From the NCBI RefSeq assembly GCF_024498175.1, contig NZ_CP101823.1, forward strand, positions 2,236,987 to 2,300,986: a stretch of 64,000 bases of DNA, written 5' to 3'. Positions 1 to 43,900 of the stretch are shown here, in pieces. A program made the translations under genes and the position numbers. Origin of the DNA: Haloplanus salinarum. Its GTDB lineage: Archaea; Halobacteriota; Halobacteria; Halobacteriales; Haloferacaceae. The notes beneath the pieces are model-generated. The model searched no databases. It saw only the letters and a list, made by a program, of their open reading frames with translations, and had not been told where the DNA came from. Within the stretch, counting starts at the first letter, position 1. Each line of letters starts with the position of its first letter.

Positions 1-1
1 C

Positions 2-27540: not shown

Positions 27541-28707
27541 ATGGACGAGAGCATCCAGCGGGACATCCTCCAGGACCGGTACGAGAAGTACCGCACGAAG
27601 GCGGACGAACTCAGATCACAGGGAGACGCCGAGGAGGCGGCGGCGTACTACGAGCGGTGTGCCGACGCGATGGCGGATCTGGCCGAGACCGAATCCAACG
27701 AGTCGCTGGCCAAGAAACGCCGGAACCTCGCGCAGAACCTCTCGACCGTCGCGGAGAAACTCCGGGAGTCGGGGACCGTCGAGGCGGACGTCGCGGACGG
27801 TCGGGACGGTGTCCCATCCGGCGACCGGGACGCGGCCGCCGACGCCGGGGAACCGACGGCGGACGCGGACCCGGACGCGGACGCGGACGCGGCGGCGGTC
27901 GCGGAGGCCAGCGAATACCTGGAGTCCCCGCCGGATCTCGACTTCGAGGACGTGGGGGGGATGCACGACCTGAAGCGGACGCTCCGGGACAAGGTGATCG
28001 ACCCGCTGGAGCGGTCGGAGCTGTACGCGGAGTACGATCTCGGCGTGGTCAACGGCGTCATGCTGTACGGCCCCCCGGGAACCGGGAAGACGCACATCAC
28101 GCGGGCGCTGGCGGGTAAACTCGGCTACAACTTCGTCGACGTCGAACCCAACGACATCACGAGTTCGCTGGTGGGCGAGGCGGCGGACAACGTCGCCGAA
28201 CTCTACGACGTCGCCCGCGACAACCAGCCCTGCCTGGTCTTCGTCGACGAGGTGGACGCGCTGATGCCGTCCCGCAGCGGCGGGTCACAGAAGACCCAGA
28301 GCGAGCGCCAGATGGTCAACCAGTTCCTCACGGAGTTGACCGAGTGTCGGGGCGAGGACGTCATCACGGTGACGGCGACCAACATCCCCGACGAGGTGGA
28401 CGGCGCGGCGACGAGCCGGTTCCAGGAGCGGATCGAGGTCCCGCCGCCGGACGCCGAGGCCCGCGAGGCCATCCTCCGGGTCCACCTCCGGGACCGGCCG
28501 GCGCTCCCGGACGAGATCGACTGGGATCGGATCCGGCGGCTGAGCGAGGGGTACTCGGGGCGCGACCTGGAGGTCGTCGCCGACGACGCCGCCCGCAGGG
28601 CGCTCCAGGAGGCGGTCGACGCCGACGAGATCCAGCATATCCGTCAGGAGCACGTCGAGACGGCACTCGAGGAGACCGAACCGAGCCTCGACCACTGGGA
28701 CGGCTAG
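27541..28707 (+). CDS. Vps4/katanin-clade AAA+ ATPase with N-terminal MIT-like domain
   Basis: Walker A GPPGTGKT, Walker B LVFVDEVDAL, SRFQERIEVPPPDAEAREAIL matches Vps4 RRFExRIYIPLPD; N-terminal three-helix EEAAAYYERCADAMADL MIT-like region; no PAN-type coiled-coil or HbYX. Confidence 0.8.
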   Translation: MDESIQRDILQDRYEKYRTKADELRSQGDAEEAAAYYERCADAMADLAETESNESLAKKRRNLAQNLSTVAEKLRESGTVEADVADGRDGVPSGDRDAAADAGEPTADADPDADADAAAVAEASEYLESPPDLDFEDVGGMHDLKRTLRDKVIDPLERSELYAEYDLGVVNGVMLYGPPGTGKTHITRALAGKLGYNFVDVEPNDITSSLVGEAADNVAELYDVARDNQPCLVFVDEVDALMPSRSGGSQKTQSERQMVNQFLTELTECRGEDVITVTATNIPDEVDGAATSRFQERIEVPPPDAEAREAILRVHLRDRPALPDEIDWDRIRRLSEGYSGRDLEVVADDAARRALQEAVDADEIQHIRQEHVETALEETEPSLDHWDG

Positions 28708-28776
28708 CCGGCGGGCGAATGCCGCGGGTCGACAGGCGGCACCTTTTTTGTGGGTAGTCGATCACGGCACAGTCAC

Positions 28777-29496
28777 ATGACAGAGAGACGGTGGGACACG
28801 TGGTGGTCGAACTACTTTCTCGCACTGGGCATCCTCTCGGTCGTCGTCGCCGGCTACCTAGGGTGGACGCTGAGCCAACAACCCCGGATGGGGGGGATGG
28901 GGTCGGTGATCGGGGTCGTACTGGCGCTCTTCGGCGTTACCGCCCTGCTGAACGTGGGGATCGGCCTCTGGATCAGGCGGGGGAGCGCGTACGCGTGGTA
29001 CGTGGGAATGGGGCTGCTCGCCCTGTCGGTGCTCGGATCGCTCGGCGGCGGCGGGGAGGCGATGGGCGGTGTCGCGGTTTCGGGGATCGGACTCGTCCTC
29101 GGCTACCTCGCGCGGGACGACCTCCTCGAATCCAAGACGGTGACCGAGGACGCGTCGTCGACCCCGGCCGAGCCGACGGGAGCGGGCGGCGGTCGGGACC
29201 CCGACCGCCGGCCGAACCGCGAGGGGGAGACGGCGCCGCGGGACCGACCCGCCTCGACGGCCGACGACGCGGCGGGGGCACGACGGAACGCGGGCTCGGC
29301 GTCCGGATCCCCCGAGCCGGCGGCAGAGACAGGAGCGGAGGCGGGGACGGCCCAGTCGATGGACGCGGAACGACCATCCTCGGCAGCGTCGCCGGAGTCC
29401 GGCAGCGAGGACGGGACGAAGTTCTGCCCGTACTGTGGCGAGGAGATTCCGGACCGGGCGGACCACTGTCCGTACTGTTCGTCGTCGATCCCGTAA
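28777..29496 (+). CDS. membrane protein with disordered linker and C-terminal double zinc ribbon
   Basis: TM helices in the first 120 aa; KFCPYCGEEIPDRADHCPYCSSSIP. Confidence 0.6.
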   Translation: MTERRWDTWWSNYFLALGILSVVVAGYLGWTLSQQPRMGGMGSVIGVVLALFGVTALLNVGIGLWIRRGSAYAWYVGMGLLALSVLGSLGGGGEAMGGVAVSGIGLVLGYLARDDLLESKTVTEDASSTPAEPTGAGGGRDPDRRPNREGETAPRDRPASTADDAAGARRNAGSASGSPEPAAETGAEAGTAQSMDAERPSSAASPESGSEDGTKFCPYCGEEIPDRADHCPYCSSSIP

Positions 29497-29965: not shown

Positions 29966-30850
29966 TCAGAGGTCGGCGCCGCAACTGATACACGTGTTCC
30001 ACTCGGGGTCGACCTCCTCGCCGCAGTGTGTACAGAAACGGGTCGCGTCGGGCGACCCGCCACCCCCGTCGCCGGCCGCCGATCCGCCCCCCTGGGAGTG
30101 CGATTGCCGGTCGGTCCGGGCCGGCTCCCCGGCCCGTCGGTCGGCGGTCCCCTGACGGCGTTCCCGCTGGGCACGATCGCCCTGCGGCTGTGATCGGCCG
30201 CCCTGGCCCTGTGGCGGCCGGTCGGCCGCGGCTCGCTCGCCGCCGGCCCGACCGCCGTCGGCGCCGGCCTCGGGTTCGGCGGAGGCGGTGATGTCCGACC
30301 GGTTGACGACGCTGTCCTCGACCTGCGTGCGCTGATCCTTGACGGTCTTGCTCTGGTCGACGCGGGTCGTGCTCTGGTCGATGGTGTCGACGTTGGTGGT
30401 GCTTTGATCGACGTGAGTCTGCTGGTTCTTCCGGTCGACCATGTCGCCCTGCACGTTCGTCACCTGGTCGGGCCCCTTCTCGACTTCCTTTTTTGTTTCG
30501 AGGTACTCCTTGCCGGCCTTGGCGACGGTTTCCTTGGCCGCCTGTCGTTTCTTCTTCGCCATGATCGTGTAGTCGTACAGCCCGAGCAACATGACGACGA
30601 GGATGGCGAACGCGGAGGCGCCCAGCGCCGACCCGCTGAGGTTCCCGACCGCCAGCGCCAACCCGACGAGCAGGAGGATGATCGCCCCGATCCGCAGGAA
30701 GCCACTGAACTTCGAGAGGTTGTCCGGCGCGTCGATGTCCGGATGGTCCCCCGCGACCGCCGCCCCGTACAGTACGACCGACAGTGTTTGCGCGACTACC
30801 ATACTGCCAGCCTGCGAATCGACCGACTTTAATCTTGGCCCGAGCGACAT
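29966..30850 (-). CDS. membrane protein with STT-VD repeat module and C-terminal zinc ribbon (start uncertain)
   Basis: two TM helices; VDQSTTNVDTIDQSTTRVDQSKTVKDQRTQVEDSVVNRSD; FCTHCGEEVDPEWNTCISCGADL; ORF 29966..30967 trimmed to MSLGPRL. Confidence 0.55.
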   Translation of the reverse strand: MSLGPRLKSVDSQAGSMVVAQTLSVVLYGAAVAGDHPDIDAPDNLSKFSGFLRIGAIILLLVGLALAVGNLSGSALGASAFAILVVMLLGLYDYTIMAKKKRQAAKETVAKAGKEYLETKKEVEKGPDQVTNVQGDMVDRKNQQTHVDQSTTNVDTIDQSTTRVDQSKTVKDQRTQVEDSVVNRSDITASAEPEAGADGGRAGGERAAADRPPQGQGGRSQPQGDRAQRERRQGTADRRAGEPARTDRQSHSQGGGSAAGDGGGGSPDATRFCTHCGEEVDPEWNTCISCGADL

Positions 30851-31064
30851 GTTCGAATACAGGGAGGTATCGTCGACACCGTCGGCGCCCGGACCCCGAC
30901 CGGGCTTTCGTCGGGTGGCTGTCGGTGAGAGGCGACCGGACGGGACGGGCACGGGCGGACGGGGCAACCTTTATTCCCATCCTCGTATCATGTTTTCCGA
31001 TAACGAGGTTCTCGGGGCGTCCCCGGTGGGGGTGGGCGCGGCCGTGAGCCACGGGAGACAACCA

Positions 31065-32903
31065 ATGCCTTCGACATGCCCGAACTGCGACGGACGTGTG
31101 CCATCGGACGGCGACTTCTGTCCGAACTGCGGGGAGTCGCTGTCGACGAACTGTCCCGGCTGTGGGGAGTCGCTACCGATCGACGCCCAGTTCTGTGCCA
31201 ACTGCGGCCAGGACCTCACCAGCTCCACCGGCCAGCGGGGATCGGGGAACGCCGCGGGAGGCGGCAGTTGGCGACTGGGCGACGACGAGTTCGCCAAGCG
31301 CGTCGACGGCGCCGCCCTCGACGGCGACGGACTGCTCGCCACGCTCAGCCGGCGAAAGGACGTCGAAATCGAGGCCGGTAATCGGGCGCTCCTGCTCGAG
31401 AACGGGAAGCTCGTCGAGACGCTCGAGGCCGGCAAACACAAGCTCGACAGCCTCGGCAAGCGGATCCGAGAGCTCAGATCCAGCCACAACCTCACAGTCG
31501 TACTGGTCCAGGAGGGGCGGACCACCGTCGCCCGCTCGTTCGACGACATCCGGACGGCCAGCGACTACCTCGTCGACGTCACGGTCGAACTCGACGTGGG
31601 GATGCACGACCCACAGACGTTCTTCCGTTCGATGATGGCCGACCGGGACGTGCTGACGACCGGCACGTTCAACCAGTTGCTCGGGCGGGCGATCCGGAAC
31701 GCCCTGGAGGCGACCATCTCGGAGTACGACCACCAGGAACTCTACGGGAGCAAGGAGGTCAAGCGTCGCGTCGCTCGCGAAATCGAGGAGCAGTGTCGCT
31801 CGGTCCTCGAGAGCAACGGGCTCGAACTCGTCGAACTGGTCTCCTTCGACTACGACGACGACCGGGGCGAGATCCGTCAGGGCCGCAAGGACGTCGACAT
31901 CCGCGAGGAGAAAGAGGAGATCAAGGACCGCGAGAGCGAGCTGGACCGGCGGGGGCGCGAACGGCAGACCGAGGACAAGGTCCACGGGGAGAAACAGCGC
32001 GTCCGGAAGGAGTCCGCCGAGATGAGTGCCGACCACACGCTCGACAAACAGGAGGTCGAGCAACAGCAGGAGATCGACGACAAACGGCGCCGGCACGGCC
32101 ACAAGGCCGAACGGGAGGACGTCGAACACGAGGAGGACGTGCGGACCTACCGGACCGAATCCGAGGTCGAGCGCGAGGACATCCGCCACGAGCAGGAGAT
32201 GAAAGAGCGGGAGCAGGAACACGAACAGGACGTCTCCGAAATCGAGGATCTGGTCGACCTCAAGCGGAAGAAAGACGAGCAGAAACTCGACAAGCAGGAG
32301 CGCAAACAGGAGATGGAGATGCAGAAAGAGAGCCACGAGGTGGACGTCGAGAAGGAGCGCCTCGAGGCTCGCGACGACGTGGACGCCCAGACCCTCGCCA
32401 GCATGGAGGATACGGACGAGGAGATGATCGACCTGGCGAAGATGGACAAGGCGGAGAACCTGAACGCCGACCAGCTCGACTCGCTGGGCGCCCAGAAGAG
32501 CGACGAACTGGCGAAGGCCCGTCAGGAGGCAAACAGCGCCGAGAAGGAGCGCGAACGGGTCGAGGACCAGAAGCAGTTCCGCGAGGAGATGCAGGACATG
32601 ATGGAGGGATCGATGGATCGCATGGAGCGAACCACCGACAAGGCGATGGACAGCATGGGCGGCGCGGCGGAGGCGGCCGCCGAGGACACCTCGGACAACG
32701 TCATCGTCAGCGGCGAGGGCGGCGACTCGTCGGGCGGGGACACGACCATCGTCCAGGGCGGTCCCGGCGGGGGTGGCGACGGCACCACCGCCGAATCCGA
32801 CGGCGGAGCCGACGAGCCCGAGAAGATCATCGTCTGTCCGAGCTGTGGCTCCGAGGAACCGTACGCCAACGACTTCTGTATGGGGTGTGGACAGGAGTTC
32901 TGA
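31065..32903 (+). CDS. SPFH/band-7 (flotillin-like) protein flanked by N-terminal tandem zinc ribbons and a C-terminal zinc ribbon, with a long EA-rich coiled coil
   Basis: CPNCDGRV...FCPNCGESL..CPGCGESL...FCANCGQDL; SPFH-like core (KDVEIEAGNRALLLENGKLVETLEAGKHKLD...VVLVQEGRTTVARSFDDIRTASDYLVDVTVELDV...); C-terminus CPSCGSEEPYANDFCMGCGQEF. Confidence 0.7.
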   Translation: MPSTCPNCDGRVPSDGDFCPNCGESLSTNCPGCGESLPIDAQFCANCGQDLTSSTGQRGSGNAAGGGSWRLGDDEFAKRVDGAALDGDGLLATLSRRKDVEIEAGNRALLLENGKLVETLEAGKHKLDSLGKRIRELRSSHNLTVVLVQEGRTTVARSFDDIRTASDYLVDVTVELDVGMHDPQTFFRSMMADRDVLTTGTFNQLLGRAIRNALEATISEYDHQELYGSKEVKRRVAREIEEQCRSVLESNGLELVELVSFDYDDDRGEIRQGRKDVDIREEKEEIKDRESELDRRGRERQTEDKVHGEKQRVRKESAEMSADHTLDKQEVEQQQEIDDKRRRHGHKAEREDVEHEEDVRTYRTESEVEREDIRHEQEMKEREQEHEQDVSEIEDLVDLKRKKDEQKLDKQERKQEMEMQKESHEVDVEKERLEARDDVDAQTLASMEDTDEEMIDLAKMDKAENLNADQLDSLGAQKSDELAKARQEANSAEKERERVEDQKQFREEMQDMMEGSMDRMERTTDKAMDSMGGAAEAAAEDTSDNVIVSGEGGDSSGGDTTIVQGGPGGGGDGTTAESDGGADEPEKIIVCPSCGSEEPYANDFCMGCGQEF

Positions 32904-33220: not shown

Positions 33221-35521
33221 TCACTCCCCGTCGTACAGGTCCGCGAGCGCGTCGCGCAGGTAGACGATGTCGTCGTAGCGGTCGGCCTTTTCCTTCGCCA
33301 GCGCCGTCAGTACCACGTCGTCGAGCGCGGCGGGGACGTCGGCCACCTCGCTGGGCGGCCTCGGTCGGTCGTCCAGTACCGCGCGCACGACTCTCGTGCG
33401 CTCGCCCTCGAACGGCGGCCGGCCGGTGAACAGCTCGTAGAACACCGCCCCCAGCTGGTAGACGTCGGTGAGGTCGTCGACCGACCCGTAGGACTCGTCG
33501 AACTGCTCCGGCGCGGCGTAGTGGGGCGACACCCCCTCGACGCTCGCCGAGTGATCGAGCAGGTGTTTCGACAGCCCCCAGTCGGCCACCTTCGGGACGT
33601 CCCAGGCCCCGTCGACGGACCGAAAGAGGACGTTCTCGGGTTTCAGATCGAGGTGGGCGACGCCGCGTCGGTGGGCGTGGCGCACGCCCTTCGTCACCGC
33701 GAGGGCCGTCCACAGCGACTGCTGGACGTCCATCGTCCCCGCCCGGTCGCCGAGGTGGCCGCCGTCCATGTACTCCATGGCGATCCACGGGAGGGGTTCG
33801 GCCCCGTAGTCGACGACGCCGACCACGTGGTCGTGGTCGTCGAGTTTGTCCCACGTTTCGGCCTCGGCCAGCATCCGCTCGACGGTGTCGGTGTGGAGCG
33901 TCCCCGAGAGGCGTGGCTTCTTGACGGCCAGCGTGACGGTGCCGTCCGGGGTCGGTGCCGTCGCCCGGACGACGTCGGCGTTCCCGCCGCTTCCGATGAT
34001 GCCCGCCTCCGTGAGCGCGTCGTACGCGACCGAGACGTCGGGTGCGCGCGGGATCTCCGTGGGCGGTCCCCCCGGCGGTCGGTTCCCGGTCGACGGCCCG
34101 TCCGCCGGCCGTTCGACGGGGTCGTCGCCGGGGGCCGGCGCGTCGGCCGCGGTGCCGAGCGAGACGTCCGCGAACCCATCGGTCGCCTCGTCGGGCGTCA
34201 CCGGGGTCGATCCCGCGTCGGGTGACGGTCCGGAGTCGGCGTCGGCCACGTCGCTCCGTTCGGATCGTGGCGACGGTGTGGACCCGGAGTCGTCCGCGGT
34301 ATCGGAGTGTCGGGACGGGGACGCGGAGCGACCGCGGCGCGGCGACGCGGGGCCGGGACCGTCGAACGCGGACGTCGTCCCGTCCGATCCGCCGGACCCG
34401 TCGCCGGAGCGGCGCAGCCACCACCAGCCACCGCCCAGTCCGGCGGCGAGCAGGCCCGCGGCCGGCAGGACGACCCCGCCGTCGCCGCCCGCCGCGTCGT
34501 TTTCGGGGTCGCCCCCGTCCGACGAGTCGCCACCCGCCGGGGCCGCCGTGGACGTCGCGGTGGGGGTCGGCGTCGCGGTGGGCGTCGGGGTCGTGGGCTC
34601 GCCGGCGACCGCAAGCAGGAAGTCGTCGGCCGCCGTCACGTAGACGGTCCCGTCGGCCACCGCCGGGGAGGACGTGATGTCGTTCGAGTGGCCGTCGTAC
34701 GCCCACAGCCGGTCGCCCGTCTCGGCGTCGAACCCGTACAGCGTGTCGCCATCCGCGAGGTAGACCGCGCCGTCGGCCACGGCTGGCGAGGAGCGCCGGT
34801 CGCCGGGGTCGGCCGACCATCGCTCCTGGCCCGACGCCGCGTCCAATGCGTACAACGCCGTCCCGGCCGCGAAAACGGTCCCGTCGGCTACCGCCGGCGA
34901 TGCGAACCCCCAAGCGTCGTCGGCGTCGGCCGTGAACCGCCACCGCTCGGAGCCGTCGTCGGCCGACAGCGCGTAGACGGCCCCGTCGGTGCTGCCGACG
35001 TAGACGGTGCCGTCGACGACTGCCGGCGAGGAACGCACCTCCCCGTCAGTCTCGAACGTCCACGCCGGCCGTCCCGAGTCGGTCGGGAGAGCGTAGACGC
35101 TCCCGTCGTTGCTCCCGACGTAGACGGTGCCGTCGACGACCGCCGGCGAGGAGAAGACCTTCCCGCCCGTCCGGTACCGCCACCGTTCGGACCCGTCGGC
35201 GACGGGGAGTGCACGGACGTAGCGGTCGTTGCTCCCGACGTAGACGGTTCCGTCGACCACCGCGGGCGACGACGTCGGGCGGTTGTCGTCGGCAAACACC
35301 TGGCCGCTCGGGCCCGCCGAGGCCCACGTTCGGTCGACGTCGGCGACCGGCCCGGAGACGGCCGGCGCGTGTCCGGTGTTCGCGGCGTCGCGGTGGTGTT
35401 GGGGCCACGACTCCTCCGAATCGGACTGGGCCGCCGCGAGTCCGGTCGCCCCGTCGACGGCCGAGTATCCGGCCGCGGCGCCCGCGGCCGCCCGCAGGAA
35501 CTCCCGTCTCCTCGGCGCCAT
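33221..35521 (-). CDS. transmembrane receptor Ser/Thr protein kinase with extracellular PQQ-repeat beta-propeller
   Basis: Tat-like RRREFLRAAAGAAAG signal; repeated AVVDGTVYVGSNDGSVYAL PQQ blades; Pro/Thr linker; one TM; C-terminal Hanks kinase motifs HLDLKPENVL, VADWGLSK, YAAPEQ. Confidence 0.8.
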   Translation of the reverse strand: MAPRRREFLRAAAGAAAGYSAVDGATGLAAAQSDSEESWPQHHRDAANTGHAPAVSGPVADVDRTWASAGPSGQVFADDNRPTSSPAVVDGTVYVGSNDRYVRALPVADGSERWRYRTGGKVFSSPAVVDGTVYVGSNDGSVYALPTDSGRPAWTFETDGEVRSSPAVVDGTVYVGSTDGAVYALSADDGSERWRFTADADDAWGFASPAVADGTVFAAGTALYALDAASGQERWSADPGDRRSSPAVADGAVYLADGDTLYGFDAETGDRLWAYDGHSNDITSSPAVADGTVYVTAADDFLLAVAGEPTTPTPTATPTPTATSTAAPAGGDSSDGGDPENDAAGGDGGVVLPAAGLLAAGLGGGWWWLRRSGDGSGGSDGTTSAFDGPGPASPRRGRSASPSRHSDTADDSGSTPSPRSERSDVADADSGPSPDAGSTPVTPDEATDGFADVSLGTAADAPAPGDDPVERPADGPSTGNRPPGGPPTEIPRAPDVSVAYDALTEAGIIGSGGNADVVRATAPTPDGTVTLAVKKPRLSGTLHTDTVERMLAEAETWDKLDDHDHVVGVVDYGAEPLPWIAMEYMDGGHLGDRAGTMDVQQSLWTALAVTKGVRHAHRRGVAHLDLKPENVLFRSVDGAWDVPKVADWGLSKHLLDHSASVEGVSPHYAAPEQFDESYGSVDDLTDVYQLGAVFYELFTGRPPFEGERTRVVRAVLDDRPRPPSEVADVPAALDDVVLTALAKEKADRYDDIVYLRDALADLYDGE

Positions 35522-35666
35522 ACGGTACGAACGTGCTCTAGGACCCTCATAACGGTTTTCCCGCGGTGTGACGGAGTCGATCGTCCGAACGGGGTGGACG
35601 GGGTCGAGGGCCGACCCCCCCGGGCCGGCCCCAGATTTATGTATCGGGTGGAATATCTCGGATCGT

Positions 35667-37220
35667 ATGAGTTGTCAGGCACCGGGGATGCTCGGGGACG
35701 ACGGTCCGGTCGACGATCGGGTCGCCAGGACCGAAGTGTTGGCTCGGGCGTTCGCCGACGCGGCAGGGGAGTTTTTCGAACGGCGGAAACAGTACGAGGA
35801 CGCCATCGAGGAGGCCGAATCCGAGAAAGATCGGATGAAAATGATCGGAATCGGAGGAGTCGGCGTCGGGGTCCTCCTCCTCGTGGTCGGCGTCGCCGGC
35901 GGGAACGGGGCGTCGCTTCCGCTGATCGGGATCGGACTGCTGGTCGCCGCTGCGGGCGGCGCGTACGCGTACACACAGTACCAGGCGGCCGAGGAACGGA
36001 TCGAGGAGAACCGCCGGAACCTCCGGGAGAACGAACCCGACGGGGAGGTGTCGTTCGTCTCGCAGGTGACGGTCCCGTTCTATCTGGTCCCGTACCAGGA
36101 GCGGTTCATGATCTTCGACGGCCTCGATCAGGCCCCCGAAACGCGACTGGAGCTCGCGAACATCGACGGCGACGCACTGACGAGCGAGGCCGAGCGGTAC
36201 GGGGAGATGATCGACACCTTCGAGGAGACGCTCGGCGGTGAGTCGGTCGTCTCGCCGGAGTTCGCCGAGCAGTTCGCGCCGGACGTGGCGGAACACGGAC
36301 GGCTCGAACGGCCGTTGCTCGATCGGATCGACGCGATGACCGACGTCGCGTCGTCCGTCTCCCACGACGTGGTCGACGTGAACGTCCACGCGAACGACGC
36401 GAAAAGCGAGAGCATCCGGACCTTCGCCGAGCGCGGGGCGTTCCGGGAGGGGAGCGACCTGCCGAGCGTGCCGACCCGGCGGTCGGCGGCCGAGAGCGAG
36501 GCGGCGGTCGACGAGATCCGCGGCGTCGAACAGGAGGCAGTGAGCGGCGACCTGCTCTCGCAGGCCCGCGAACAGCGGACGTTCGTCAACGAGACGGCGA
36601 CCGAGTTCGCCGAGCGACTCCAGACGAACGAGGAGGCGGTGAACGACCACTACGGCGCCTACGCCGAGTCGGCGGAGACGGCCGTCCACCGCCACGTCTG
36701 TGCGGAGTGTCTCGCGGAACGCATCGAGGACATCGACGGTCGCCTCGATCTGGTGTCCGAGATCCTCAGTTCGGAGACGGGGAGCCTGGGTGCGGCGCTG
36801 AGCGACCGCGACCTCGACGAGGGGTACGACGGCAAGTTCACCGAGAAGATCCGCAACGACATCCAGCGGGAGATTCCCGAACTCTCGGAGACGCTCAAGC
36901 GGGCGTACAACACCCTGCCGGAGCTGGGCGCCGGCGGCGGACACTGTGAGGTCCACGGCGAGGTGCAGACGACGCCGGTCCCCGACGGCGGCGCCATCTT
37001 CGGCGAAACCTGGCGGAGCCTCTACTACGCGTTCCGCGAACCGATCATGGAGAGCGCCGACGACCTCGAACGCGACGCCGAGGAGGTCAGACAGAACAAA
37101 GAGCAGAAGATGATCGACATGACACAGTACGAACAGATCAAGGAGCGGGCCGAGCGCGACTACCACCAGGTCAGGTCGGATTACGAGGCCGCGAAGACGG
37201 TCCAACGGAGGCTCCGCTAA
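35667..37220 (+). CDS. membrane-anchored coiled-coil protein, first gene of a six-gene operon
   Basis: TM segment IGIGGVGVGVLLLVVGVAG...LIGIGLLVAAAGGAY; TATA-like tttatg ~27 nt upstream of ATG 35667. Confidence 0.6.
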   Translation: MSCQAPGMLGDDGPVDDRVARTEVLARAFADAAGEFFERRKQYEDAIEEAESEKDRMKMIGIGGVGVGVLLLVVGVAGGNGASLPLIGIGLLVAAAGGAYAYTQYQAAEERIEENRRNLRENEPDGEVSFVSQVTVPFYLVPYQERFMIFDGLDQAPETRLELANIDGDALTSEAERYGEMIDTFEETLGGESVVSPEFAEQFAPDVAEHGRLERPLLDRIDAMTDVASSVSHDVVDVNVHANDAKSESIRTFAERGAFREGSDLPSVPTRRSAAESEAAVDEIRGVEQEAVSGDLLSQAREQRTFVNETATEFAERLQTNEEAVNDHYGAYAESAETAVHRHVCAECLAERIEDIDGRLDLVSEILSSETGSLGAALSDRDLDEGYDGKFTEKIRNDIQREIPELSETLKRAYNTLPELGAGGGHCEVHGEVQTTPVPDGGAIFGETWRSLYYAFREPIMESADDLERDAEEVRQNKEQKMIDMTQYEQIKERAERDYHQVRSDYEAAKTVQRRLR

Positions 37221-38209
37221 TGGCCGAGCGCGACAGGGTTCGGATCACGAATCCGGGCGACGTCGGGGACGCCGCGGCCAGGGGCATCAAGAGTCAGATC
37301 TCCAAGCTCAACAGTTCGATCGAACAGACAAACCGGGAGATTCAGAACCTCGAGAAGCGCATCGGGGAACTGGAGCAGAGTTTCGCGCGGATCGAACAGA
37401 CGAAGGCAGCGGCCCGGGCGGAGGCGATGGAGGACCTGGTCGACGATCTCAAAGAACAGGTCGACGAGAAGCGCGCGGAGTTCCAGCGGCGCCGACGCGA
37501 CGTGCTGGAGGATTACCGCGACAGCATCCGGCGGCTGAAGGACCGGTTCGTCGGGACCATCTCCGGCAACCGCGAGCAGTTCGATCAGGTGGAGTCTGAA
37601 CTCGCCGATATCGAGGAGCGTCGAGGGGAGACGGCGGCGGCCGCGGGCCGGTTGAGCGACGGGGCAGCCCGGGAGTACGATCGGCGTCTCGACGCGGTGA
37701 TCGAGAGCCGGAACGGCTTCCTGTCGGCGATCAACGACTTCCTCGACGACCGCGAGACGACGGCGGAGACCATCGACTCGCTCCAGACGCCGCTGCCCGG
37801 CGTCTCGGGAGTGACGACCGTCGAGGTGCCGTTCTGGGTGGTCGGCATCGAGCGCGACGGCCGGGAGGAGGTCCGGGTGTTGCCGGTACTGGCACGCGGG
37901 AGCGGCGACGCGTCGGCGACGCGCGCCCAGCCGTACGTGAACTACCTCCGGGAGCATCCGACCCACAGCTACGGCGACATGGCCGACGCGGTGTCGGAGT
38001 ACGTCCGGCGAGACGAGGTCCGGGACCGGCTGGCCAAACAGGACGGCGAGTTCGCCGACCCGGACGTCCTCCGGCGGCGCGACGAGACGCTCGATCGGTT
38101 CGTCGACGCGCTGGCGGAGTACCAGCTGGACGGAGACGACCGATCCGGGGAGGCGTCCGGGAGGGCGACCGACGCGGCGGAGCAAACGGAGGTGGCGGCG
38201 GATGACTGA
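37220..38209 (+). CDS. coiled-coil protein (operon gene 2)
   Basis: start ATG overlaps stop TAA of gene 1; N-terminal heptad-rich region. Confidence 0.6.
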   Translation: MAERDRVRITNPGDVGDAAARGIKSQISKLNSSIEQTNREIQNLEKRIGELEQSFARIEQTKAAARAEAMEDLVDDLKEQVDEKRAEFQRRRRDVLEDYRDSIRRLKDRFVGTISGNREQFDQVESELADIEERRGETAAAAGRLSDGAAREYDRRLDAVIESRNGFLSAINDFLDDRETTAETIDSLQTPLPGVSGVTTVEVPFWVVGIERDGREEVRVLPVLARGSGDASATRAQPYVNYLREHPTHSYGDMADAVSEYVRRDEVRDRLAKQDGEFADPDVLRRRDETLDRFVDALAEYQLDGDDRSGEASGRATDAAEQTEVAADD

Positions 38210-39353
38210 GGAGGCGAAGGGCGCGATCACCTCGGAGAAGATCGAGACGGATAACACGAACTTCGCGACGGTCAGAGCCGACCAGACCTGCGAGGAGGTG
38301 CTCGTCCCGCGGGAGAACGCGTACCGACAGCTCAACTGGCAGATCACCTTCGAGAAGGGCTCGGTCTACAAGCCACAGGAGGACGTGGGCATCTACGCCG
38401 ACGAGGTCGACTGCAAGTACGGCGTCCAGATCCGGGGGGACGTGTTCGGCCGGAGCGCGGTCGGGCTCGAACACGGCGGCGCGGCCCACTCCGGCGCCGA
38501 CCGTGCGGACGGGGAGACGCCGGTCGTCGGTGCGCGGGTCATCGGGTCGGTGCTCTCGGATGGACAGGTCGACATCACGGAACCCGCGTCGCGGATGGAC
38601 GACTGGGAGCCACGCCCGGTCCGGGTGTACGGCGACGTGGTCGGCGATCACGTGACGGTCGAGGCGCCGACGGTCGTCTACGGGACGGTGAGCGCCGAGA
38701 CGACCCTGCGGGCGAACGCCCCGCTGGTCGTGGTCGGCGACGTGCGCTCGGAGGGGATCATCGAGGCGTCGGACCTGTTCGCGTTCTCGGTGAGCGCTCG
38801 GGACGACGTGACCCTCGGCCACAACGTCGCGGTGATCAACCCGGAGCTCCGCTCGGACGAGGGGAGCCTGACCATCGCGGACCGGGTGGGCGTCCTCACC
38901 CCCGACCTCCTGGAGCGGATTCACGAGGGGAACGACGTCGACGCGGTCGGGCCGTGGGTGTTCGACGTCGACGCCGTCTGGGAGGGGTCGGTCCTGGTGC
39001 CCCCCGACGTCTCGGATCACGGGCAGGGCCAGGTCACCAGCCGCGCCTGGCGGACCGTCGAGGAACCGACGGAGTCGCGGTCGAAGGCGCGCCGGCTCTT
39101 CGAGTCGATGATCGAGCGGACGCGCAAACGGCCGCCGGACTTAGAGGAGTTCCGGTACGCCGGCGTCGGGTCGGCCGCCGGCGGGACGGAGATCACCGTC
39201 GAGGGCGACATGGTCGTCGGGGAACAGGAGAAACGCGTCGACGAGAGCACGACCGCGGTCGACCGGAGCACGGAGGTCCACGACGAGAGCACGACCGTCG
39301 AGGACAGCGTCGTCAACCGGTCTGACCTGAGCGACGGCGACGGGGAGGACTGA
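38202..39353 (+). CDS. bactofilin-like beta-helix protein with C-terminal STT-VD repeat tail (operon gene 3)
   Basis: recurrent VxGDV motifs (GVQIRGDVFG, GARVIGSVLSDGQVDI, VRVYGDVVGDHVTV, LVVVGDVRSEGIIE) with ~17-18 aa period; tail VVGEQEKRVDESTTAVDRSTEVHDESTTVEDSVVNRSD; 8-nt overlap with gene 2. Confidence 0.5.
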   Translation: MTEEAKGAITSEKIETDNTNFATVRADQTCEEVLVPRENAYRQLNWQITFEKGSVYKPQEDVGIYADEVDCKYGVQIRGDVFGRSAVGLEHGGAAHSGADRADGETPVVGARVIGSVLSDGQVDITEPASRMDDWEPRPVRVYGDVVGDHVTVEAPTVVYGTVSAETTLRANAPLVVVGDVRSEGIIEASDLFAFSVSARDDVTLGHNVAVINPELRSDEGSLTIADRVGVLTPDLLERIHEGNDVDAVGPWVFDVDAVWEGSVLVPPDVSDHGQGQVTSRAWRTVEEPTESRSKARRLFESMIERTRKRPPDLEEFRYAGVGSAAGGTEITVEGDMVVGEQEKRVDESTTAVDRSTEVHDESTTVEDSVVNRSDLSDGDGED

Positions 39354-39355
39354 CC

Positions 39356-39946
39356 GTGCCCTACTGTGATCGACACAACGAGGTGTACAGCGGCCCGGAA
39401 TGTCCGGCCTGCGCGGACGAGGGCGGGGACACGGCACCCGCCGAGGACGGGCCGGGCGCGGGCGGGGACGCCGGCGCGGCCGGGGGCATCGACGACCTGG
39501 TCGACGAGGCCGTCTCGGCCGCGACGGACGCCGTCGACGACGCGGACGACGTGGTCGTCGGGGAGCAGTCGAAACGCGTCGACAGGAGCACAACCGTCGT
39601 CGACGACAGCACCGAGGTCCACGACCGGAGCACGACCGTCTCGGACAGCGTCGTCAGCGACTCGGAGATCGACGCCGGCGACGGCGCCGGCGAGGGGACG
39701 ACCGTCGTCGACGACAGCGTCGTCAGCGACTCCACGGTCGGCGGCGGGGGGGAGACCGAAGTCGAGGACAGCGTCCTCGACGACGCGACCGTCGGGGACG
39801 AACACGTCGAGTCGGCGGTCGGCGACGTCGGCGGTGGGTCGGACCCCGATCCGGCGACCGACGACGACGCGGCGTTCTGCATCTACTGTGGCACCGAGAT
39901 TCCGGCGACCGCGGGGTTCTGTCCGGCCTGCGGGGAGGAACAGTGA
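39356..39946 (+). CDS. double-zinc-ribbon protein with STT-VD repeat module (operon gene 4)
   Basis: N-terminus CDRHNEVYSGPECPAC; VVVGEQSKRVDRSTTVVDDSTEVHDRSTTVSDSVVSDS; C-terminus FCIYCGTEIPATAGFCPACGEEQ; 2-nt gap after gene 3. Confidence 0.6.
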   Translation: MPYCDRHNEVYSGPECPACADEGGDTAPAEDGPGAGGDAGAAGGIDDLVDEAVSAATDAVDDADDVVVGEQSKRVDRSTTVVDDSTEVHDRSTTVSDSVVSDSEIDAGDGAGEGTTVVDDSVVSDSTVGGGGETEVEDSVLDDATVGDEHVESAVGDVGGGSDPDPATDDDAAFCIYCGTEIPATAGFCPACGEEQ

Positions 39947-39980
39947 GGGACGTCCACAAGACACTTACGCGGCCTCGGAG

Positions 39981-40811
39981 ATGGCGAACCAACGGACGCG
40001 ACGGAGGGAGGTCCGCATGAACGACATCGTCAGCGAACTCCGGACACAGGCACTCGAATCGACGTACGGCGAAGACCGCCGGGACGCCCTAGAGCGACTG
40101 GCCGACCGGTACGACGAGGCCGGCGAGGCCGAGCGTCGGGAGATCCGACAGACGCTCGCCGACGTGGCGCGGGACGCCACCCACAAGGAGGAGCGCGAAC
40201 TGGCGCGCGAGCGCCTCGACGACCTCTACGAACGCGACTCGGCGGCCGCGGGGACGGTCGTCGGCACCTACTGCTGGCTGGCCACCGAGGCGGACTACTC
40301 GGGGGAGCGCGAGGCCGCCCTCGACCGCCTGCGGCGGATCGGCCGGTCGGGGGTGTCGGCCGACCTCCGGGACCGGATCGCCGACACCTTCGAGACGGTG
40401 ACGGCGGAGGCGACCTACAGCGCCGAACGCGAACAGGCTCGTCGAGGGCTATCGGAACTGCCCGACGGTGGCGACGCGGACGCGGACGCGGGCGGTGGCG
40501 GTGGCGGGGCGGGCGCGTCCGAGAGCGGCGACGCCTACCTCGCCGTCTCGCTCACCGAACACCTCGTGGCCGCCCGGACCGAGGGCGCCGACGCGTGTCT
40601 CGGCCGCGCGGAGGAACTCCACGACTTCGTCGACCGCCATCCCGTCGACGACGACGCCTACGGGGAGGTCCGCGACGACCTGTCGTCGCTGGTCGACCAG
40701 TTGAGCGTCGTCGCCGACGGGCAGTCGTCGCTCGGCGAGGAGCGCCGGACGCAGGTCGAACGGGTGGCCGATCGGACCAAGCGACTCTACCTCCGAAGCG
40801 GCGACGACTGA
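39981..40811 (+). CDS. alpha-helical HEAT-like repeat protein (operon gene 5; alternative start 40017)
   Basis: three ~40-aa repeats YGEDRRDALERLADRY / YSGEREAALDRLRRIG / YSAEREQARRGLSEL. Confidence 0.5.
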   Translation: MANQRTRRREVRMNDIVSELRTQALESTYGEDRRDALERLADRYDEAGEAERREIRQTLADVARDATHKEERELARERLDDLYERDSAAAGTVVGTYCWLATEADYSGEREAALDRLRRIGRSGVSADLRDRIADTFETVTAEATYSAEREQARRGLSELPDGGDADADAGGGGGGAGASESGDAYLAVSLTEHLVAARTEGADACLGRAEELHDFVDRHPVDDDAYGEVRDDLSSLVDQLSVVADGQSSLGEERRTQVERVADRTKRLYLRSGDD

Positions 40812-40853
40812 CCGACCGGCACGTCTTTCAGCGCCGCCCGGGAACGAGCTGTC

Positions 40854-42206
40854 ATGTCGAACGGTTCGGATGAGGGCGTCAGCGTCGGCGTGCTGTCGCT
40901 CCACAACAGCAAGGAGACGAAGGCGATTCTGAACGCGGTCGAGGACCTCGGCCACGATCCGGTGTGGCTCCGACAGGAGAACACGACCGTGACCATCGAG
41001 GACAGCACGGTCACGGTCGAACCGGACGTCGACGTGGTCGCGAACCGGCTTCTCCTCTCGACGACGGGCGATCCCGCGGAGTTGCTGGGGCTGGCGACGA
41101 CGTTCGAGCGGATCCGGCCGATGCTGAACGAGCCGGACGCGGTGTTGACCGCGATCCACAAGTTCGCGACGGCGGCGACGCTCGCCGACTGGAACGTACA
41201 GGTGCCCGACGCCTTCCTGGCGCTGTCGAACGAGGGACTCAACGAGGGGCGGGAACGGTTCGGCGACGTGGCCGTCTACAAGACCGCCATCGGCACCCAC
41301 GGCGGCGGGACCTGGAAGGTCGACCTGACGGAGCCGGTCAATCCGCGGGTGGGCAACCGCCAGGCGTTCCTCCAGGAACTCGTGGAGCGCGACGAGAGCG
41401 AACACCGCGACCTGCGGGTGTACGTCGTCGACGACGAGATCGTCGGCGCGATGTACCGTTACGCGCCGGAGGGTGACTGGCGGACCAACGTCGCCCTGGG
41501 CGGGGCCGTGGCCGACGCCAGCGACGACCTCCCGGAGACGGCCGCGGAGACGGCGCTGTACACGACCGAGGTGATGGGACTCGACTACGCCGGCGTCGAC
41601 CTCATCGAGGGCGAGGACGGCTGGTTCGTCCTCGAGATCAATCCCACGGCGGGGTTCAAGGGTCTGTACGAGGCGACGGGGGTCAGTCCGGCGCCCCACA
41701 TCGCGAAACTGGCCATCGAGCGCGCCGGGGGGACGGTCGACGAGGAGCGCGTCCGACACCTCGCGGCGACGCTCGACGACTCGACGCCGGCGTGCAAGCC
41801 ACGGACCCTCCCGCCGGAACAGGAGGATCTCCCGCTCATCGGCTACATCGAGGAGGTGATCGTCAGCGGGACGAGCGGGTCGACGCAGGTGATGGCCAAA
41901 TCCGACACCGGGGCGACGCGGACCAGCATCGACACGGGGTTGGCCGCCGACATCGGCGCGGGACCGATCAAGAGCATGACGCGGGTCCGATCGGGGAGCG
42001 TCAAGTCGGGGAAGGCCCGGCCGGTCGTCGACCTGGTCGTCGGTATCGGGGGCACCCAACACACCGTCACGGCGAGCGTCGAGGATCGGAGCCACATGGA
42101 CTACCCCGTGTTGCTCGGCCGGGACGTGCTGGAGCGGTACCGCGTCGACGTGCGACGCCGCGCCGACGGCGAGGAGCGCGACGGGAGCGAGGTGCTGGAG
42201 GAGTAG
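40854..42206 (+). CDS. RimK-family ATP-grasp ligase fused to C-terminal retropepsin-like aspartic protease domain
   Basis: ATP-grasp motifs (VAVYKTAIGTHGGGTWKV, GLDYAGVDLIEGEDGWFVLEINPTAG); C-terminus VMAKSDTGATRTSID...VLLGRDVLERYRVDV matches the retropepsin-like domain of RimK-associated proteases. Confidence 0.7.
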   Translation: MSNGSDEGVSVGVLSLHNSKETKAILNAVEDLGHDPVWLRQENTTVTIEDSTVTVEPDVDVVANRLLLSTTGDPAELLGLATTFERIRPMLNEPDAVLTAIHKFATAATLADWNVQVPDAFLALSNEGLNEGRERFGDVAVYKTAIGTHGGGTWKVDLTEPVNPRVGNRQAFLQELVERDESEHRDLRVYVVDDEIVGAMYRYAPEGDWRTNVALGGAVADASDDLPETAAETALYTTEVMGLDYAGVDLIEGEDGWFVLEINPTAGFKGLYEATGVSPAPHIAKLAIERAGGTVDEERVRHLAATLDDSTPACKPRTLPPEQEDLPLIGYIEEVIVSGTSGSTQVMAKSDTGATRTSIDTGLAADIGAGPIKSMTRVRSGSVKSGKARPVVDLVVGIGGTQHTVTASVEDRSHMDYPVLLGRDVLERYRVDVRRRADGEERDGSEVLEE

Positions 42207-42239: not shown

Positions 42240-43295
42240 ATGACCCCGCTGGAACTGACCGTTCGGCTCGTCGCCGGCGTCCTCCTCATCCTGGCGAACG
42301 GCTTTTTCGTCGCTATCGAGTTCGCGCTCACGCGGGTCCGCCAGTACCCCGAATCCGAGTTCGACACGCCGGCGCTGCGTCGCGCGTGGGAGATGACACA
42401 GGACCTCGAGATCTATCTCACGAGCTGTCAGGTCGGCATCACCGCCTCCAGCATCGCGGTGGGTATCGTCGCCGAACCGGCGCTCGCCGCGCTGTTCGAG
42501 CCGGTCTTCGCGGGGAGTGCTCTGGCCGGCGTGGGGCTCGGCGCGCTGATCGCGTACGCGATCATCAACCTCCTCCATCTGACCCACGGGGAGCAGACGC
42601 CGACGTATCTCGGCGTCGAGCGCTCGAAGTTCGTCTGTCGGTACGGCGCCCGCCCACTCTACTGGTTCGCGTGGCTCATCTCGCCGGTGATGCGGATCGG
42701 CGACGGCGTGGCGAAGGCGACGCTCAAGCTGTTCGGCATCGAGATGACGGGGGCGTGGCTGGAGACCGAAGAGGAGGTGATCGAGTCGCGGGCGGACCTG
42801 CGCAACCGCCTCGGGTCCCTGCTCGCCGAGGGCGACCTCCCCGAGGAGCGCCAGGAGGAGGTGCTCAACGCGCTCGAAGTCGGCGAGACGGCGGTCGAGG
42901 AGGTGATGACCGACGCCGCGGACGTCGTCTCGCTGTCGACGACCGACTCCGTCGCTGAGAACCTGGCGGCGATCAGCGAGACGCCACACACCAGATTCCC
43001 GCTGTTCGGCGAGGACCAGTCCGACTTCCGGGGGATCGTCTACACGCCGTCGATCGTCACCCACATGGACGCCCTCGAAGCGGGGGACCGGACGTTCGAG
43101 GAGATCGCGGCCCCGCCGATGACGGTCACGGCCGACACCAGCCTCAGCGACGCCTTCGACCAGTTCCAGGCCGAGGATCAGGAACTCGCGCTGGTGCTAG
43201 CGGACGGCGAAGTGCGCGGTCTCGTCACCGCGACGGACACGCTAGAGGCCGTGATGGGCGAACTCGAGGACCCGCTGGACCGGGTATACGGCTAG
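42240..43295 (+). CDS. CNNM/CorC/HlyC-family transporter-associated protein (DUF21 + CBS pair)
   Basis: MTPLELTVRLVAGVLLILANGFFVAIEFAL DUF21 start; CBS-like region; 351 aa. Confidence 0.75.
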   Translation: MTPLELTVRLVAGVLLILANGFFVAIEFALTRVRQYPESEFDTPALRRAWEMTQDLEIYLTSCQVGITASSIAVGIVAEPALAALFEPVFAGSALAGVGLGALIAYAIINLLHLTHGEQTPTYLGVERSKFVCRYGARPLYWFAWLISPVMRIGDGVAKATLKLFGIEMTGAWLETEEEVIESRADLRNRLGSLLAEGDLPEERQEEVLNALEVGETAVEEVMTDAADVVSLSTTDSVAENLAAISETPHTRFPLFGEDQSDFRGIVYTPSIVTHMDALEAGDRTFEEIAAPPMTVTADTSLSDAFDQFQAEDQELALVLADGEVRGLVTATDTLEAVMGELEDPLDRVYG

Positions 43296-43900
43296 TCCAC
43301 CACCCGCACTTCCTCGACGGCGTCGGCGACGTCCTCCTCGACCTGCCACAGGTAGAGACTGGCGTAACTGCGGTACGGCGCCCAGCGCTCGGCCCGTTCG
43401 GCCATCGCTTCGCGGCCGATGTCGCCGTACAGCGTCCGCATCCCCTTGCGAACTCCCAGATCTCCGACCGGGAACACGTCGGGACGACCGAGGGAGAACA
43501 TGAGCTGCATCTTCGCGGTCCACGTCCCGACCCCGGTGATGGCTGTGAGTTCGTCGATCACCGCCCGGTCGTCCATCCCCGCGAACGAGTCGAGCGTGTA
43601 GCCACGATCACGGAAGGCCGCCGCGACGTTCGTCACGTACCGCGTCTTCTGCCGGGACAGCCCCGCGTCACGGAGGGTATCCGTCTCCGCGTCGAGTACC
43701 CCCTCGGGGGTCACCTCGACCGCCTCGAAGAGGCGTCGCCGCGTGGCCGCCGCGGACGCCATCGACACCTGCTGGCGGAGGATGGAGACGACGAAGCGGG
43801 CGAAGAAGTCGTCGGCCGGATCGATCGAGAGGTGGCCGTGGCGCTCGATCAGCGGCCGGAAGTCGGGATCGGTCCGGAGGGCGTCGATTGCCTCGTCCAT
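43292..43900 (-). CDS. HhH-GPD superfamily DNA glycosylase (AlkA/3-methyladenine glycosylase II-like)
   Basis: ELTAITGVGTWTAKMQLMFSLGRPDVFPVGDLGV helix-hairpin-helix GPD motif with catalytic Asp. Confidence 0.7.
   Translation of the reverse strand: MDEAIDALRTDPDFRPLIERHGHLSIDPADDFFARFVVSILRQQVSMASAAATRRRLFEAVEVTPEGVLDAETDTLRDAGLSRQKTRYVTNVAAAFRDRGYTLDSFAGMDDRAVIDELTAITGVGTWTAKMQLMFSLGRPDVFPVGDLGVRKGMRTLYGDIGREAMAERAERWAPYRSYASLYLWQVEEDVADAVEEVRVVD

Follow-up and report, generated by a model that had tools for sequence, protein, structure and literature searches.

A four-gene module beside ESCRT-type and SPFH genes in Haloplanus salinarum as a candidate accessory scaffold of archaeal membrane remodelling

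The ESCRT systems of archaea have been surveyed by Makarova et al. (2024, PMC10936438), a source that stands here for its main text and for the loci of its Table S2 that are available in readable form. In that table, the locus of Natronomonas moolapensis is annotated as arCOG09748, arCOG08177, a membrane protein, ESCRT-III (arCOG07402) and Vps4, and belongs to the 'Main' euryarchaeal type, which typically comes with Ser/Thr kinases and phosphatases. The survey describes arCOG09748 as 'ESCRT system protein, C-terminal wH' (coiled coil plus winged helix, wH), arCOG08177 as an inactivated Cas2 plus TBP-fold ESCRT protein, both assignments having needed HHpred, and arCOG07402 as 'ESCRT-III/Snf7 family'. 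[quoted passage not shown] Polymer-forming beta-helices are the other point of comparison: archaeal bactofilins, the halofilins, shape cells, and one of them, HalA, has two bactofilin subdomains placed head to head and joined by an alpha-helical hairpin, a membrane-targeting sequence (PMC11459167). Here, a locus of Haloplanus salinarum is analysed in which a module of four genes, g1 to g4, lies next to genes resembling such an ESCRT system. The window, that is, the whole stretch of DNA that was analysed, covers 64 kb of contig NZ_CP101823.1, and all positions count within it.

The module is part of a block of six consecutive open reading frames (ORFs) on the + strand at 35667-42206, named g1 to g6 (protein lengths in amino acids, aa):

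TATA-like box ATTTATGTAT, 35635-35644, + strand: AT-rich, about 28 nt before the g1 ATG
g1, 35667-37220, + strand: 517-aa membrane-anchored protein
g2, 37220-38209, + strand: 329-aa coiled-coil protein
g3, 38202-39353, + strand: 383-aa beta-helix protein
g4, 39356-39946, + strand: 196-aa acidic zinc-ribbon protein with a GTG start
g5, 39981-40811, + strand: 276-aa HEAT-like helical repeat protein
g6, 40854-42206, + strand: 450-aa RimK-family ligase fused to a retropepsin-like domain

The junctions from g1/g2 to g5/g6 measure, in order, -1, -8, +2, +34 and +42 nt. All coordinates and spacings were re-measured and agree with an earlier reading of this DNA (the sequence-only reading), which had taken the six genes for one system; its domain calls, namely transmembrane (TM) anchor, coiled coil, beta-helix, zinc ribbons, HEAT-like repeats and RimK-retropepsin fusion, are mostly borne out as well.

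Comparison with other haloarchaea indicates a smaller conserved unit. Fourteen haloarchaeal loci were mapped by tblastn (five genomic and nine metagenomic, some redundant; labels L001-L017). In all fourteen, g1, g2 and g3 are contiguous, in the same order and tightly spaced, with the 8-nt g2/g3 overlap recurring, while g4 follows g3 in most loci, its match being weak or missing in some. Because order and short junctions recur in the 14 haloarchaeal loci and in contigs of 36-46% GC, the g1-g2-g3(-g4) arrangement is kept far beyond chance. The fifth gene lies within 10 kb of the module in nine of the ten loci with adequate flanks, and its position and strand vary: in the window, L001, L002 and L010 it lies downstream of g4; in L003, L004 and L014 it is on the other strand, downstream of the SPFH gene; in L005 and L016 it lies upstream of that gene; and in L008 it stands apart. 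The sixth accompanies the module only in Haloplanus (the window and Haloplanus litoreus, L001), and was not found within 10 kb of it in any non-Haloplanus locus examined, across three phyla. Since the position of g5 varies and g6 is confined to Haloplanus, the former six-gene operon is, on this comparative evidence, a conserved core of four genes with a loosely attached g5 and an unrelated g6. The co-conservation and coupling proposed earlier therefore hold for g1-g4; they do not extend to the mobile g5 or the Haloplanus-only g6, and the six genes do not form one conserved system.

The signals around the start codons were also inspected. A GGAGG(TG) Shine-Dalgarno-like motif lies 7-8 nt 5' of each of g2, g3 and g4 (GGAGG 8 nt upstream of the g2 start, which itself has 1 nt in common with the g1 stop). 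The ATG of g5 is directly abutted by a GGAG; in the start regions of g1 and g6 no such motif was found. A GGAGG-type motif at such spacing is the usual signal of internal genes in haloarchaeal polycistronic mRNAs. The TATA-like box reported by the sequence-only reading upstream of the first ATG is present, and an equivalent AT-rich box at the same distance from the g1 start occurs in eight of the nine other loci compared (ten with the window), the exception being L003, with just an AT-rich stretch at that site. The conservation of this box, in surrounding DNA that is GC-rich and unalignable between loci, supports its assignment as putative promoter of a leaderless g1-g4 transcript. Given that the N-terminus MxYQxPGM is kept across the g1 family, the ATG at 35667 is taken as the true start of g1. 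No T-run lies between g5 and g6, and a T5 run follows the g6 stop codon. A separate observation concerns the last residues of g2 (..EVAADD), which are conserved amid otherwise variable C-termini (38185-38209 and equivalent sites in related loci); they overlap the Shine-Dalgarno motif and start codon of g3, which points to a dual constraint from coding and translation signal.

The module is embedded in a cluster of approximately 17 kb (23.8-40.8 kb), the upstream genes of which were found by all-against-all comparison of the loci:

a641, 23789-25714, - strand: 641 aa, N-terminal helical region, coiled coil and C-terminal globular region; positional equivalent of arCOG09748
b173, 25722-26243, - strand: 173 aa; positional equivalent of arCOG08177
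c101, 26460-26765, + strand: small two-TM membrane protein, with two hydrophobic segments
d229, 26838-27527, + strand: putative ESCRT-III-like protein, directly upstream of the AAA ATPase gene
e388, 27541-28707, + strand: Vps4-like single-AAA ATPase with a three-helix TPR/MIT-like N-terminal domain
f248, 28750-29496, + strand: TM protein with C-terminal zinc ribbon (Pfam Zn_Ribbon_1) and two CPYC motifs
h333, 29966-30850, - strand: TM protein with STT repeats, 'VEDSVVNRSDI' and a C-terminal zinc ribbon
SPFH protein, 30990-32903, + strand: double zinc ribbon, SPFH/Band 7 domain, long charged coiled coil and C-terminal zinc ribbon
PQQ beta-propeller plus Ser/Thr kinase, 33221-35521, - strand: divergent from g1, variable component

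The five genes from a641 to e388 (23789-28707) reproduce the order, strands and sizes of the N. moolapensis genes in Table S2; the a641/b173 pair, in particular, has the order and strand of the published pair, which measures 664 and 179 aa. The window also shares with this type a Ser/Thr kinase, and N. moolapensis is likewise a halobacterium. Unlike the window, the N. moolapensis locus as tabulated has none of g1-g4, g5, the SPFH protein or the TM/zinc-ribbon proteins with the tail motif described below. Nor were g1-g5, the SPFH protein and the tail-motif proteins found in any of the readable loci of that table or mentioned in the searched text of the survey (PMC10936438).

Sequence searches give the individual members of this cluster very different degrees of definition. 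For a641, Pfam and NCBIfam return coiled-coil-type matches only, and for b173 they return none. The protein d229, basic in its N-terminal and acidic in its C-terminal half, is 100% identical to H. rallus EI982_16115, annotated 'hypothetical protein'. No Snf7/PspA match was obtained for it by Pfam (E <= 10), by profile search against the PDB or by hhalign against a provisional sequence of human CHMP4B; its homolog search returned close Haloplanus-type relatives only, with no accession from the listing in PMC10936438. By contrast with these weakly defined proteins, e388 matches Pfam AAA (E 8e-33) and AAA_lid_3, and NCBIfam CdvC with an E-value of 6e-45 that is nevertheless below the cutoff of that family. 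Its closest PDB matches are the D2 domains of Cdc48/VAT, and its N-terminal 90 aa match TPR designs and, weakly, the MIT domain of Sulfolobus Vps4 (2w2u, E 0.41). The SPFH protein matches Pfam DZR (E 1e-13) and Band_7 (PF01145, E 1.6e-5, 25.4 bits vs a cutoff of 23.6), and the kinase gene PQQ_2 (E 8.5e-38) and Pkinase (E 1.8e-30). As in the Meth_adaptin system, a protein with SPFH domain, coiled coil and zinc ribbon is encoded within the ESCRT locus. The window differs from that system in that adaptin-appendage, GOLD and ProX genes were not identified in it, that the g1-g2-g3 triad takes the place of partner, and that the N-terminus of the Vps4-like ATPase is MIT/TPR-like.

The neighbourhood recurs outside the window. 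Of the 12 informative loci, 11 have one or more ESCRT-type genes within 10 kb of the module. In L003, L004 and L014, g1-g4 sits between the a641/b173 pair and a run of putative ESCRT-III, Vps4-like, SPFH and g5 genes; in L005 and L016 the order is g5, SPFH, g1-g4, a641; and in L011 a Vps4-like gene stands immediately 5' of g1. Homologs beside the module were recorded for the SPFH protein in L001-L005, L008, L010, L014 and L016, for a641 in L002-L006, L014 and L016, for d229 in L001-L005 and L014, for b173 in L001-L003 and L014, for c101 in L001 and L002, and for f248 in L001. Kinase homologs are found beside it in L002, L006/7 and L014, and kinases also in the more distant loci L019, L024 and L026. 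Among close relatives, the kinase gene behaves as an indel: the window has it in full length, Haloplanus litoreus L001 (7030-7448) lacks it, and L010 (2679-3504), a metagenomic contig 97% identical, retains a 68-aa remnant, with larger multi-propeller kinases at the same spot in L002, L006 and L014. It was also observed that the longest ORF of the SPFH gene shares approximately 380 nt with that of h333 (30591-30967). Homology of the SPFH protein begins at M134 or M159 of its ORF (nt 30990 or 31065) and not at 30591, and the extent of homology makes M40, at 30850, the likely start of h333. From these starts, the two genes would be divergent with approximately 140 nt between them, the mechanical ORF calls over-extending both.

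Relatives of the module exist outside the haloarchaea as well. Contigs of 36-55% GC carry distant homologs of g3, and of these contigs one is named Candidatus Thermoplasmatota and one Candidatus Aenigmatarchaeota. With hidden Markov models of the g1, g2 and g3 families, a complete triad in the same order was found in L019, L021, L024 and L026, and a fragmented copy in L025. E-values in the intact triads range from 1e-17 to 1e-64 for g1-like, from approximately 1e-36 to 1e-96 for g2-like and from approximately 1e-48 to 1e-54 for g3-like proteins; the fragmented copies of L025 score weaker. In L026, a metagenome-assembled genome (MAG) of Aenigmatarchaeota, the triad is directly followed by a protein of the EAP30/Vps36 family, the winged-helix family of ESCRT-II (E 8.6e-11, above the gathering score), and then by a protein with Band_7 domain, coiled coil and zinc ribbon (E 1.2e-14, 55.1 bits). 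In the vicinity are kinases, a protein with an FHA domain and a RING/Lsm protein of prokaryotic type. In L024 and L021, a long SPFH-like coiled-coil protein follows the triad, related to the SPFH protein of the window with E 7e-8 by phmmer and E 1e-3 by BLASTP; kinases also follow it in L024, and a STAND-type NTPase in L021. The g3 homolog of L018 (Thermoplasmatota) is found without a confirmed triad, near proteins with TPR repeats, zinc ribbon, FHA domain and PP2C phosphatase domain. Read from these gene neighbourhoods, g1-g2-g3 have a deep and recurrent association with three kinds of partner: a scaffold of SPFH type, components of ESCRT, and proteins of phospho-signalling. With few exceptions, genes of these kinds, the last comprising Ser/Thr kinase, FHA or PP2C genes, are no more than a few kb away from the block.

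As an observation of its own, the segment 3578-6896 of L026 (GCA_038841945.1) places an EAP30/Vps36 protein of a DPANN archaeon next to Band_7-zinc-ribbon and Prok-RING_2 plus Lsm_C proteins; neither DPANN nor EAP30 is mentioned in the main text of PMC10936438.

The triad itself is rare and phylogenetically scattered, occurring in some Halobacteria, in the Aenigmatarchaeota MAG and in low-GC archaeal contigs. The g3 family comprises 42 clusters at 90% identity in 5.8 billion proteins and five loci in 185,579 species genomes, and an exhaustive profile search retrieved 78 representatives at E < 1e-3 in 1.84 billion proteins. The g1 and g3 families are equal in size (44 vs 42 clusters), and none of the 42 g3 matches is a Haloferax protein.

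The first two proteins of the module would provide the attachment to the membrane. In g1, a TM helical hairpin (residues 56-102, approximately) is combined with a region of mixed alpha/beta structure, in which CxxC...CxxH is conserved, and with a C-terminal helix of some length. In g2, the N-terminus is a coiled coil, and the conserved C-terminal domain, of alpha/beta type, contains the invariant motif VPFW. Profile searches of both against PDB sequences gave no specific match.

The third protein, g3, is identical to H. rallus EI982_16070, annotated 'hypothetical protein'. It has a highly conserved N-terminal region and a beta-helix of approximately 170 residues (about 60-230), which in the structure model is one continuous beta-helix (strands at residues 64-231); helices come after it, and then a disordered tail. 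This tail consists of octad repeats that contain STT and ends in 'TTVEDSVVNRSDL' (motif at nt 39297-39329); although disordered in the model, it is among the best-conserved parts of the family. It had been expected that profile searches would identify g3 as a bactofilin/DUF583 protein; this was not borne out. The protein of the window has no Pfam match at E <= 10, and its relatives match PF04519, the commonest marginal Pfam match among them, only below the gathering score of 27.9 bits: five of 32 family members match it with a best E of 0.042, and five of ten distant homologs with E-values from 0.0014 to 0.067, all at or below 19.3 bits. In the PDB, the g3 family profile places the Thermus bactofilin 6ria on top with a non-significant E of 0.04, and Foldseek found nothing significant for the g3 model, the bactofilin 6rib ranking 21st (E 2.1). 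One distant homolog carries the NCBI label 'polymer-forming cytoskeletal protein'.

Like bactofilins and halofilins, g3 has a beta-helix, probably right-handed, with rungs of approximately 18 residues, disordered tails and a membrane-associated context. It differs from bactofilins in the length of the helix (approximately 170 vs 100 residues) and in the lack of a match at the family threshold, and from bactofilins and halofilins in its large conserved N-terminal domain, its helical C-terminal region, a membrane attachment that would come via the separate g1 and g2, and a genomic context of ESCRT and SPFH genes. The head-to-head subdomains of HalA and the TM segment of HalB are both absent from it; an identification of g3 as HalA was considered and rejected, the single continuous beta-helix of the model being incompatible with a two-subdomain architecture. 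We therefore describe g3 as a beta-helix protein that is not a member of PF04519 and that may be a very distant relative of bactofilins.

The fourth protein links the module to other genes of the cluster through the tail motif. An N-terminal CxxH/CxxC and a C-terminal CxxC/CxxC zinc ribbon (Pfam Zn_Ribbon_1, two stretches, E 1.2e-7) flank a middle part of g4 that is homologous to the tail of g3, as seen in tblastn cross-matches between the two, and that holds three copies of the DSVV motif (nt 39638, 39707 and 39761). The motif is found again in h333, 9 kb upstream of g3/g4 on the opposite strand, as 'VEDSVVNRSDI' at approximately 30290-30322, in a protein with a zinc ribbon of its own (Zn_Ribbon_1, E 1e-7). 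A six-frame scan of the 64-kb window with a degenerate motif returned five matches, every one within g3, g4 or h333, and in related loci the same scan gave matches in g3, g4 and additional zinc-ribbon proteins. Distant low-GC homologs keep the motif as IKDSVVTRSQIG, HDSVVTGSQIG and ADSVMTRSNV. Approximately 30 of the 78 significant matches of the g3 profile are small, mostly g4-like proteins that cover the tail region only. Judged by this distribution, the motif, which is near-invariant in g3, g4 and h333, behaves as an element for docking or co-folding that one system presents on several of its proteins. Two further loci bear on the proteins around it. A 270-aa protein of L006 (13024-13836, - strand) carries three DSVV copies and two zinc ribbons, its N-terminus looking FHA-like by eye with no FHA domain in the Pfam scan, and L008 encodes two multi-TM proteins with C-terminal HEAT_2 repeats (5609-7117 and 11776-13470, both on the - strand). 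This suggests a variable set of motif-bearing and repeat-bearing adaptors near the module.

For the mobile g5, the alignment shows four HEAT-like repeats of approximately 38 aa and a C-terminal helical domain. Its profile matches designed helical repeats (E 3e-19) and PP2A PR65 (E 2.5e-4 and 2.7e-3) in the PDB; Pfam gives no HEAT match, and hhalign showed no relationship with the TPR-like repeat protein of L018. On these profile matches, the 'HEAT-like' label of the sequence-only reading is a fair description and can stand. The predicted fusion at 40854-42206 was likewise recovered: g6 exceeds the cutoffs of TIGR00768 (148.6 bits, cutoff 143.4) and PF05618 (37.5 bits, cutoff 27; E 2.7e-9), the latter a RimB/RloA-like retropepsin domain, and matches PF08443 with E 1.6e-22. 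RimK and RimB are known as the pair that polyglutamylates and trims ribosomal protein S6 (PMC7343187, PMC11957791). As in the RimABK system for S6, a RimK-family ATP-grasp glutamate ligase is joined with a RimB/RloA-like retropepsin, but here both activities are in a single archaeal polypeptide, without RimA. In Haloplanus, g6 stays linked to the downstream CNNM/CBS gene. It is best seen as a lineage-specific neighbour and not as a part of the conserved module, with which it may be co-transcribed locally.

The remaining genes recorded in the window, two of which follow g6, are the following:

PGF-CTERM surface protein of 1026 aa, 15334-18414, - strand
DUF7115 protein, 19985-21148, + strand
cofactor-independent phosphoglycerate mutase, 22230-23744, - strand
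CNNM/CBS transporter-like protein, 42240-43295, + strand
HhH-GPD glycosylase, 43292-43900, - strand

A tRNA scan of the 64-kb window found none. The region 1-14000, especially 5600-9868 (+ strand), has a low G+C of 0.49-0.58, vs approximately 0.68 elsewhere, and encodes a 1422-aa fused restriction-modification protein of the Eco57I/MmeI type (Eco57I E 3e-35, N6_Mtase, TaqI_C). This stretch is probably a genomic or defence island unrelated to the module.

Taken together, the conserved order and the recurrent neighbours are consistent with g1-g4 and the mobile g5 serving an archaeal ESCRT/SPFH system of membrane remodelling as an accessory module for scaffolding or targeting, a reading to which we give about an even chance of being correct. 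According to it, g1 would insert into the membrane via its TM hairpin, and g2, with its coiled coil and C-terminal domain, would bridge g1 to g3. The beta-helix of g3 would oligomerise, possibly end to end as in bactofilins, into a scaffold apposed to the membrane at a site marked by the SPFH protein. The DSVVNRS tails of g3, g4 and h333 would be read by one common partner; candidates for it are g5 with its HEAT-like repeats, the pair of a641 and b173, and the Vps4-like ATPase through its MIT-like domain. This reader would couple the scaffold to ESCRT-III polymerisation and ATPase-driven disassembly in vesicle budding, protein sorting or membrane repair, and phosphorylation by the neighbouring kinases may act as the switch. 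In this scheme g6 would be a RimK-RimB-type polyglutamylation and trimming enzyme that is downstream by happenstance in Haloplanus. A more specific version, which we put forward tentatively and would sooner doubt than accept, is that the triad is an ancient upstream targeting or nucleation complex (ESCRT-0/I-like), a bactofilin-like polymer tethered to SPFH-marked membrane, and that DSVVNRS is a new short linear motif for docking, analogous to MIM/MIT recognition.

Several results weigh against the accessory-module reading. The functional steps are all ones that we infer from gene neighbourhood and fold. The two assignments that tie the cluster to ESCRT most directly, a641/b173 as positional equivalents of the arCOG09748/arCOG08177 pair and d229 as putative ESCRT-III, come from synteny with the published table and not from sequence. 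The N. moolapensis locus, as tabulated, has an ESCRT system without the module, which is thus dispensable for that system. In L008, where the flanks are complete, no ESCRT gene lies within 10 kb, the neighbours being only SPFH, g5 and the two HEAT-repeat membrane proteins. The structure model of g1 has low global confidence (pTM 0.29), and the relationship of g3 to bactofilins stays below every significance threshold. Finally, in L025 (1355-12090, 36% GC) an intact g3-like gene is accompanied by g1- and g2-like genes that are broken up into short ORFs (233 aa; 186 and 117 aa), and this degraded triad adjoins PglZ, DNA methyltransferase and SNF2/DEAD helicase genes, a BREX-like context.

Some of the same results would be expected if the block were an autonomous cytoskeletal or cell-shape module, with g3 a divergent bactofilin-type polymer that is anchored by g1 and g2 and acts on envelope curvature in the manner of halofilins, the ESCRT and SPFH genes being mere regulatory or historical neighbours. 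The beta-helix fold of g3, the bactofilins as its top, non-significant PDB match and its commonest marginal Pfam match, the name given by NCBI to a distant homolog, the precedent of cell shaping by halofilins and the absence of ESCRT genes around L008 all agree with this explanation. It is nevertheless unlikely, because the block sits inside an ESCRT locus in several genomes and before ESCRT-II and SPFH genes in another phylum, for which chance is a poor explanation; a family as rare and patchy as this one (approximately 42 clusters, 5 of 185,579 species genomes) is unlike core shape determinants, and g3 does not have the hairpin-joined, head-to-head subdomains of HalA. The patchiness, together with the kinase indel between close relatives, the STAND-type NTPase 3' of the triad in L021, the surroundings of the degraded triad in L025 and the type IIG restriction-modification gene elsewhere in the window, could also be accounted for by a membrane system of stress response or of anti-virus defence resembling abortive infection, which would explain the sporadic spread, the kinases, the AAA and STAND NTPases and the location in a variable region. 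We regard this as improbable. Among the six proteins submitted to PADLOC, g2 alone gave matches, which were to coiled-coil regions of JetC, ZorA and LmuB with E-values of at least 4e-6; no nuclease, toxin or other effector domain was found, and a scan of viral contigs found no relative of g3. The G+C of the cluster equals that of the host genome, and the consistent partners are membrane-remodelling proteins, not defence genes.

The proposal of the sequence-only reading, that all six genes form one operon and that its RimK-protease fusion would add glutamate to the scaffold proteins and trim them, is the least probable of the explanations, and we consider it very improbable. It would fit the position of g6, which is co-directional with g5 and 42 nt downstream of it with no T-run between and a T5 run after g6, the preservation of this arrangement in H. 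litoreus and the acidic C-terminal residues of several module proteins. On the other hand, the confinement of g6 to Haloplanus across the three phyla, within the 10 kb considered, deprives the glutamylation or processing of module components by g6 of comparative support; g6 keeps its link to the CNNM/CBS gene instead, and the described role of RimK and RimB is the modification of S6 (PMC7343187, PMC11957791).

The ESCRT system and the RimK/RimB pair are already published. As far as searched, no description exists of the g1-g2-g3(-g4) module, of the motif in its tails or of the way it is linked, across phyla, with ESCRT and SPFH genes; a literature search combining bactofilin, ESCRT and SPFH in archaea found no description of g1-g4. 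The earlier suggestion of an undescribed architecture thus stands, within this literature, for the g1-g4 module, but not for the ESCRT system that surrounds it. The present analysis redraws the boundaries of the operon, drops RimK from it and gives a context to several genes of H. rallus.

The question touched by this locus is how non-Asgard archaea that divide with FtsZ use ESCRT, and what recruits ESCRT-III to a given membrane site where ESCRT-0/I of the eukaryotic type are absent. We know of no experimental handle on this question in euryarchaea. The locus offers a concrete candidate, a co-inherited set in which a membrane anchor, a coiled coil and a beta-helix are joined by adaptors of zinc-ribbon and HEAT-like type and by an SPFH scaffold; it is found with ESCRT and kinase genes in at least two archaeal phyla, and a third phylum has a g3 homolog. 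Its confirmation would widen the set of known prokaryotic building blocks of membrane remodelling and provide a defined peptide motif and protein set. Should the more specific version also be true, with the triad as an upstream targeting complex, a bactofilin-type cytoskeleton would for the first time be tied functionally to flotillin-like scaffolds and to ESCRT, in a connection kept from DPANN archaea to Halobacteria.

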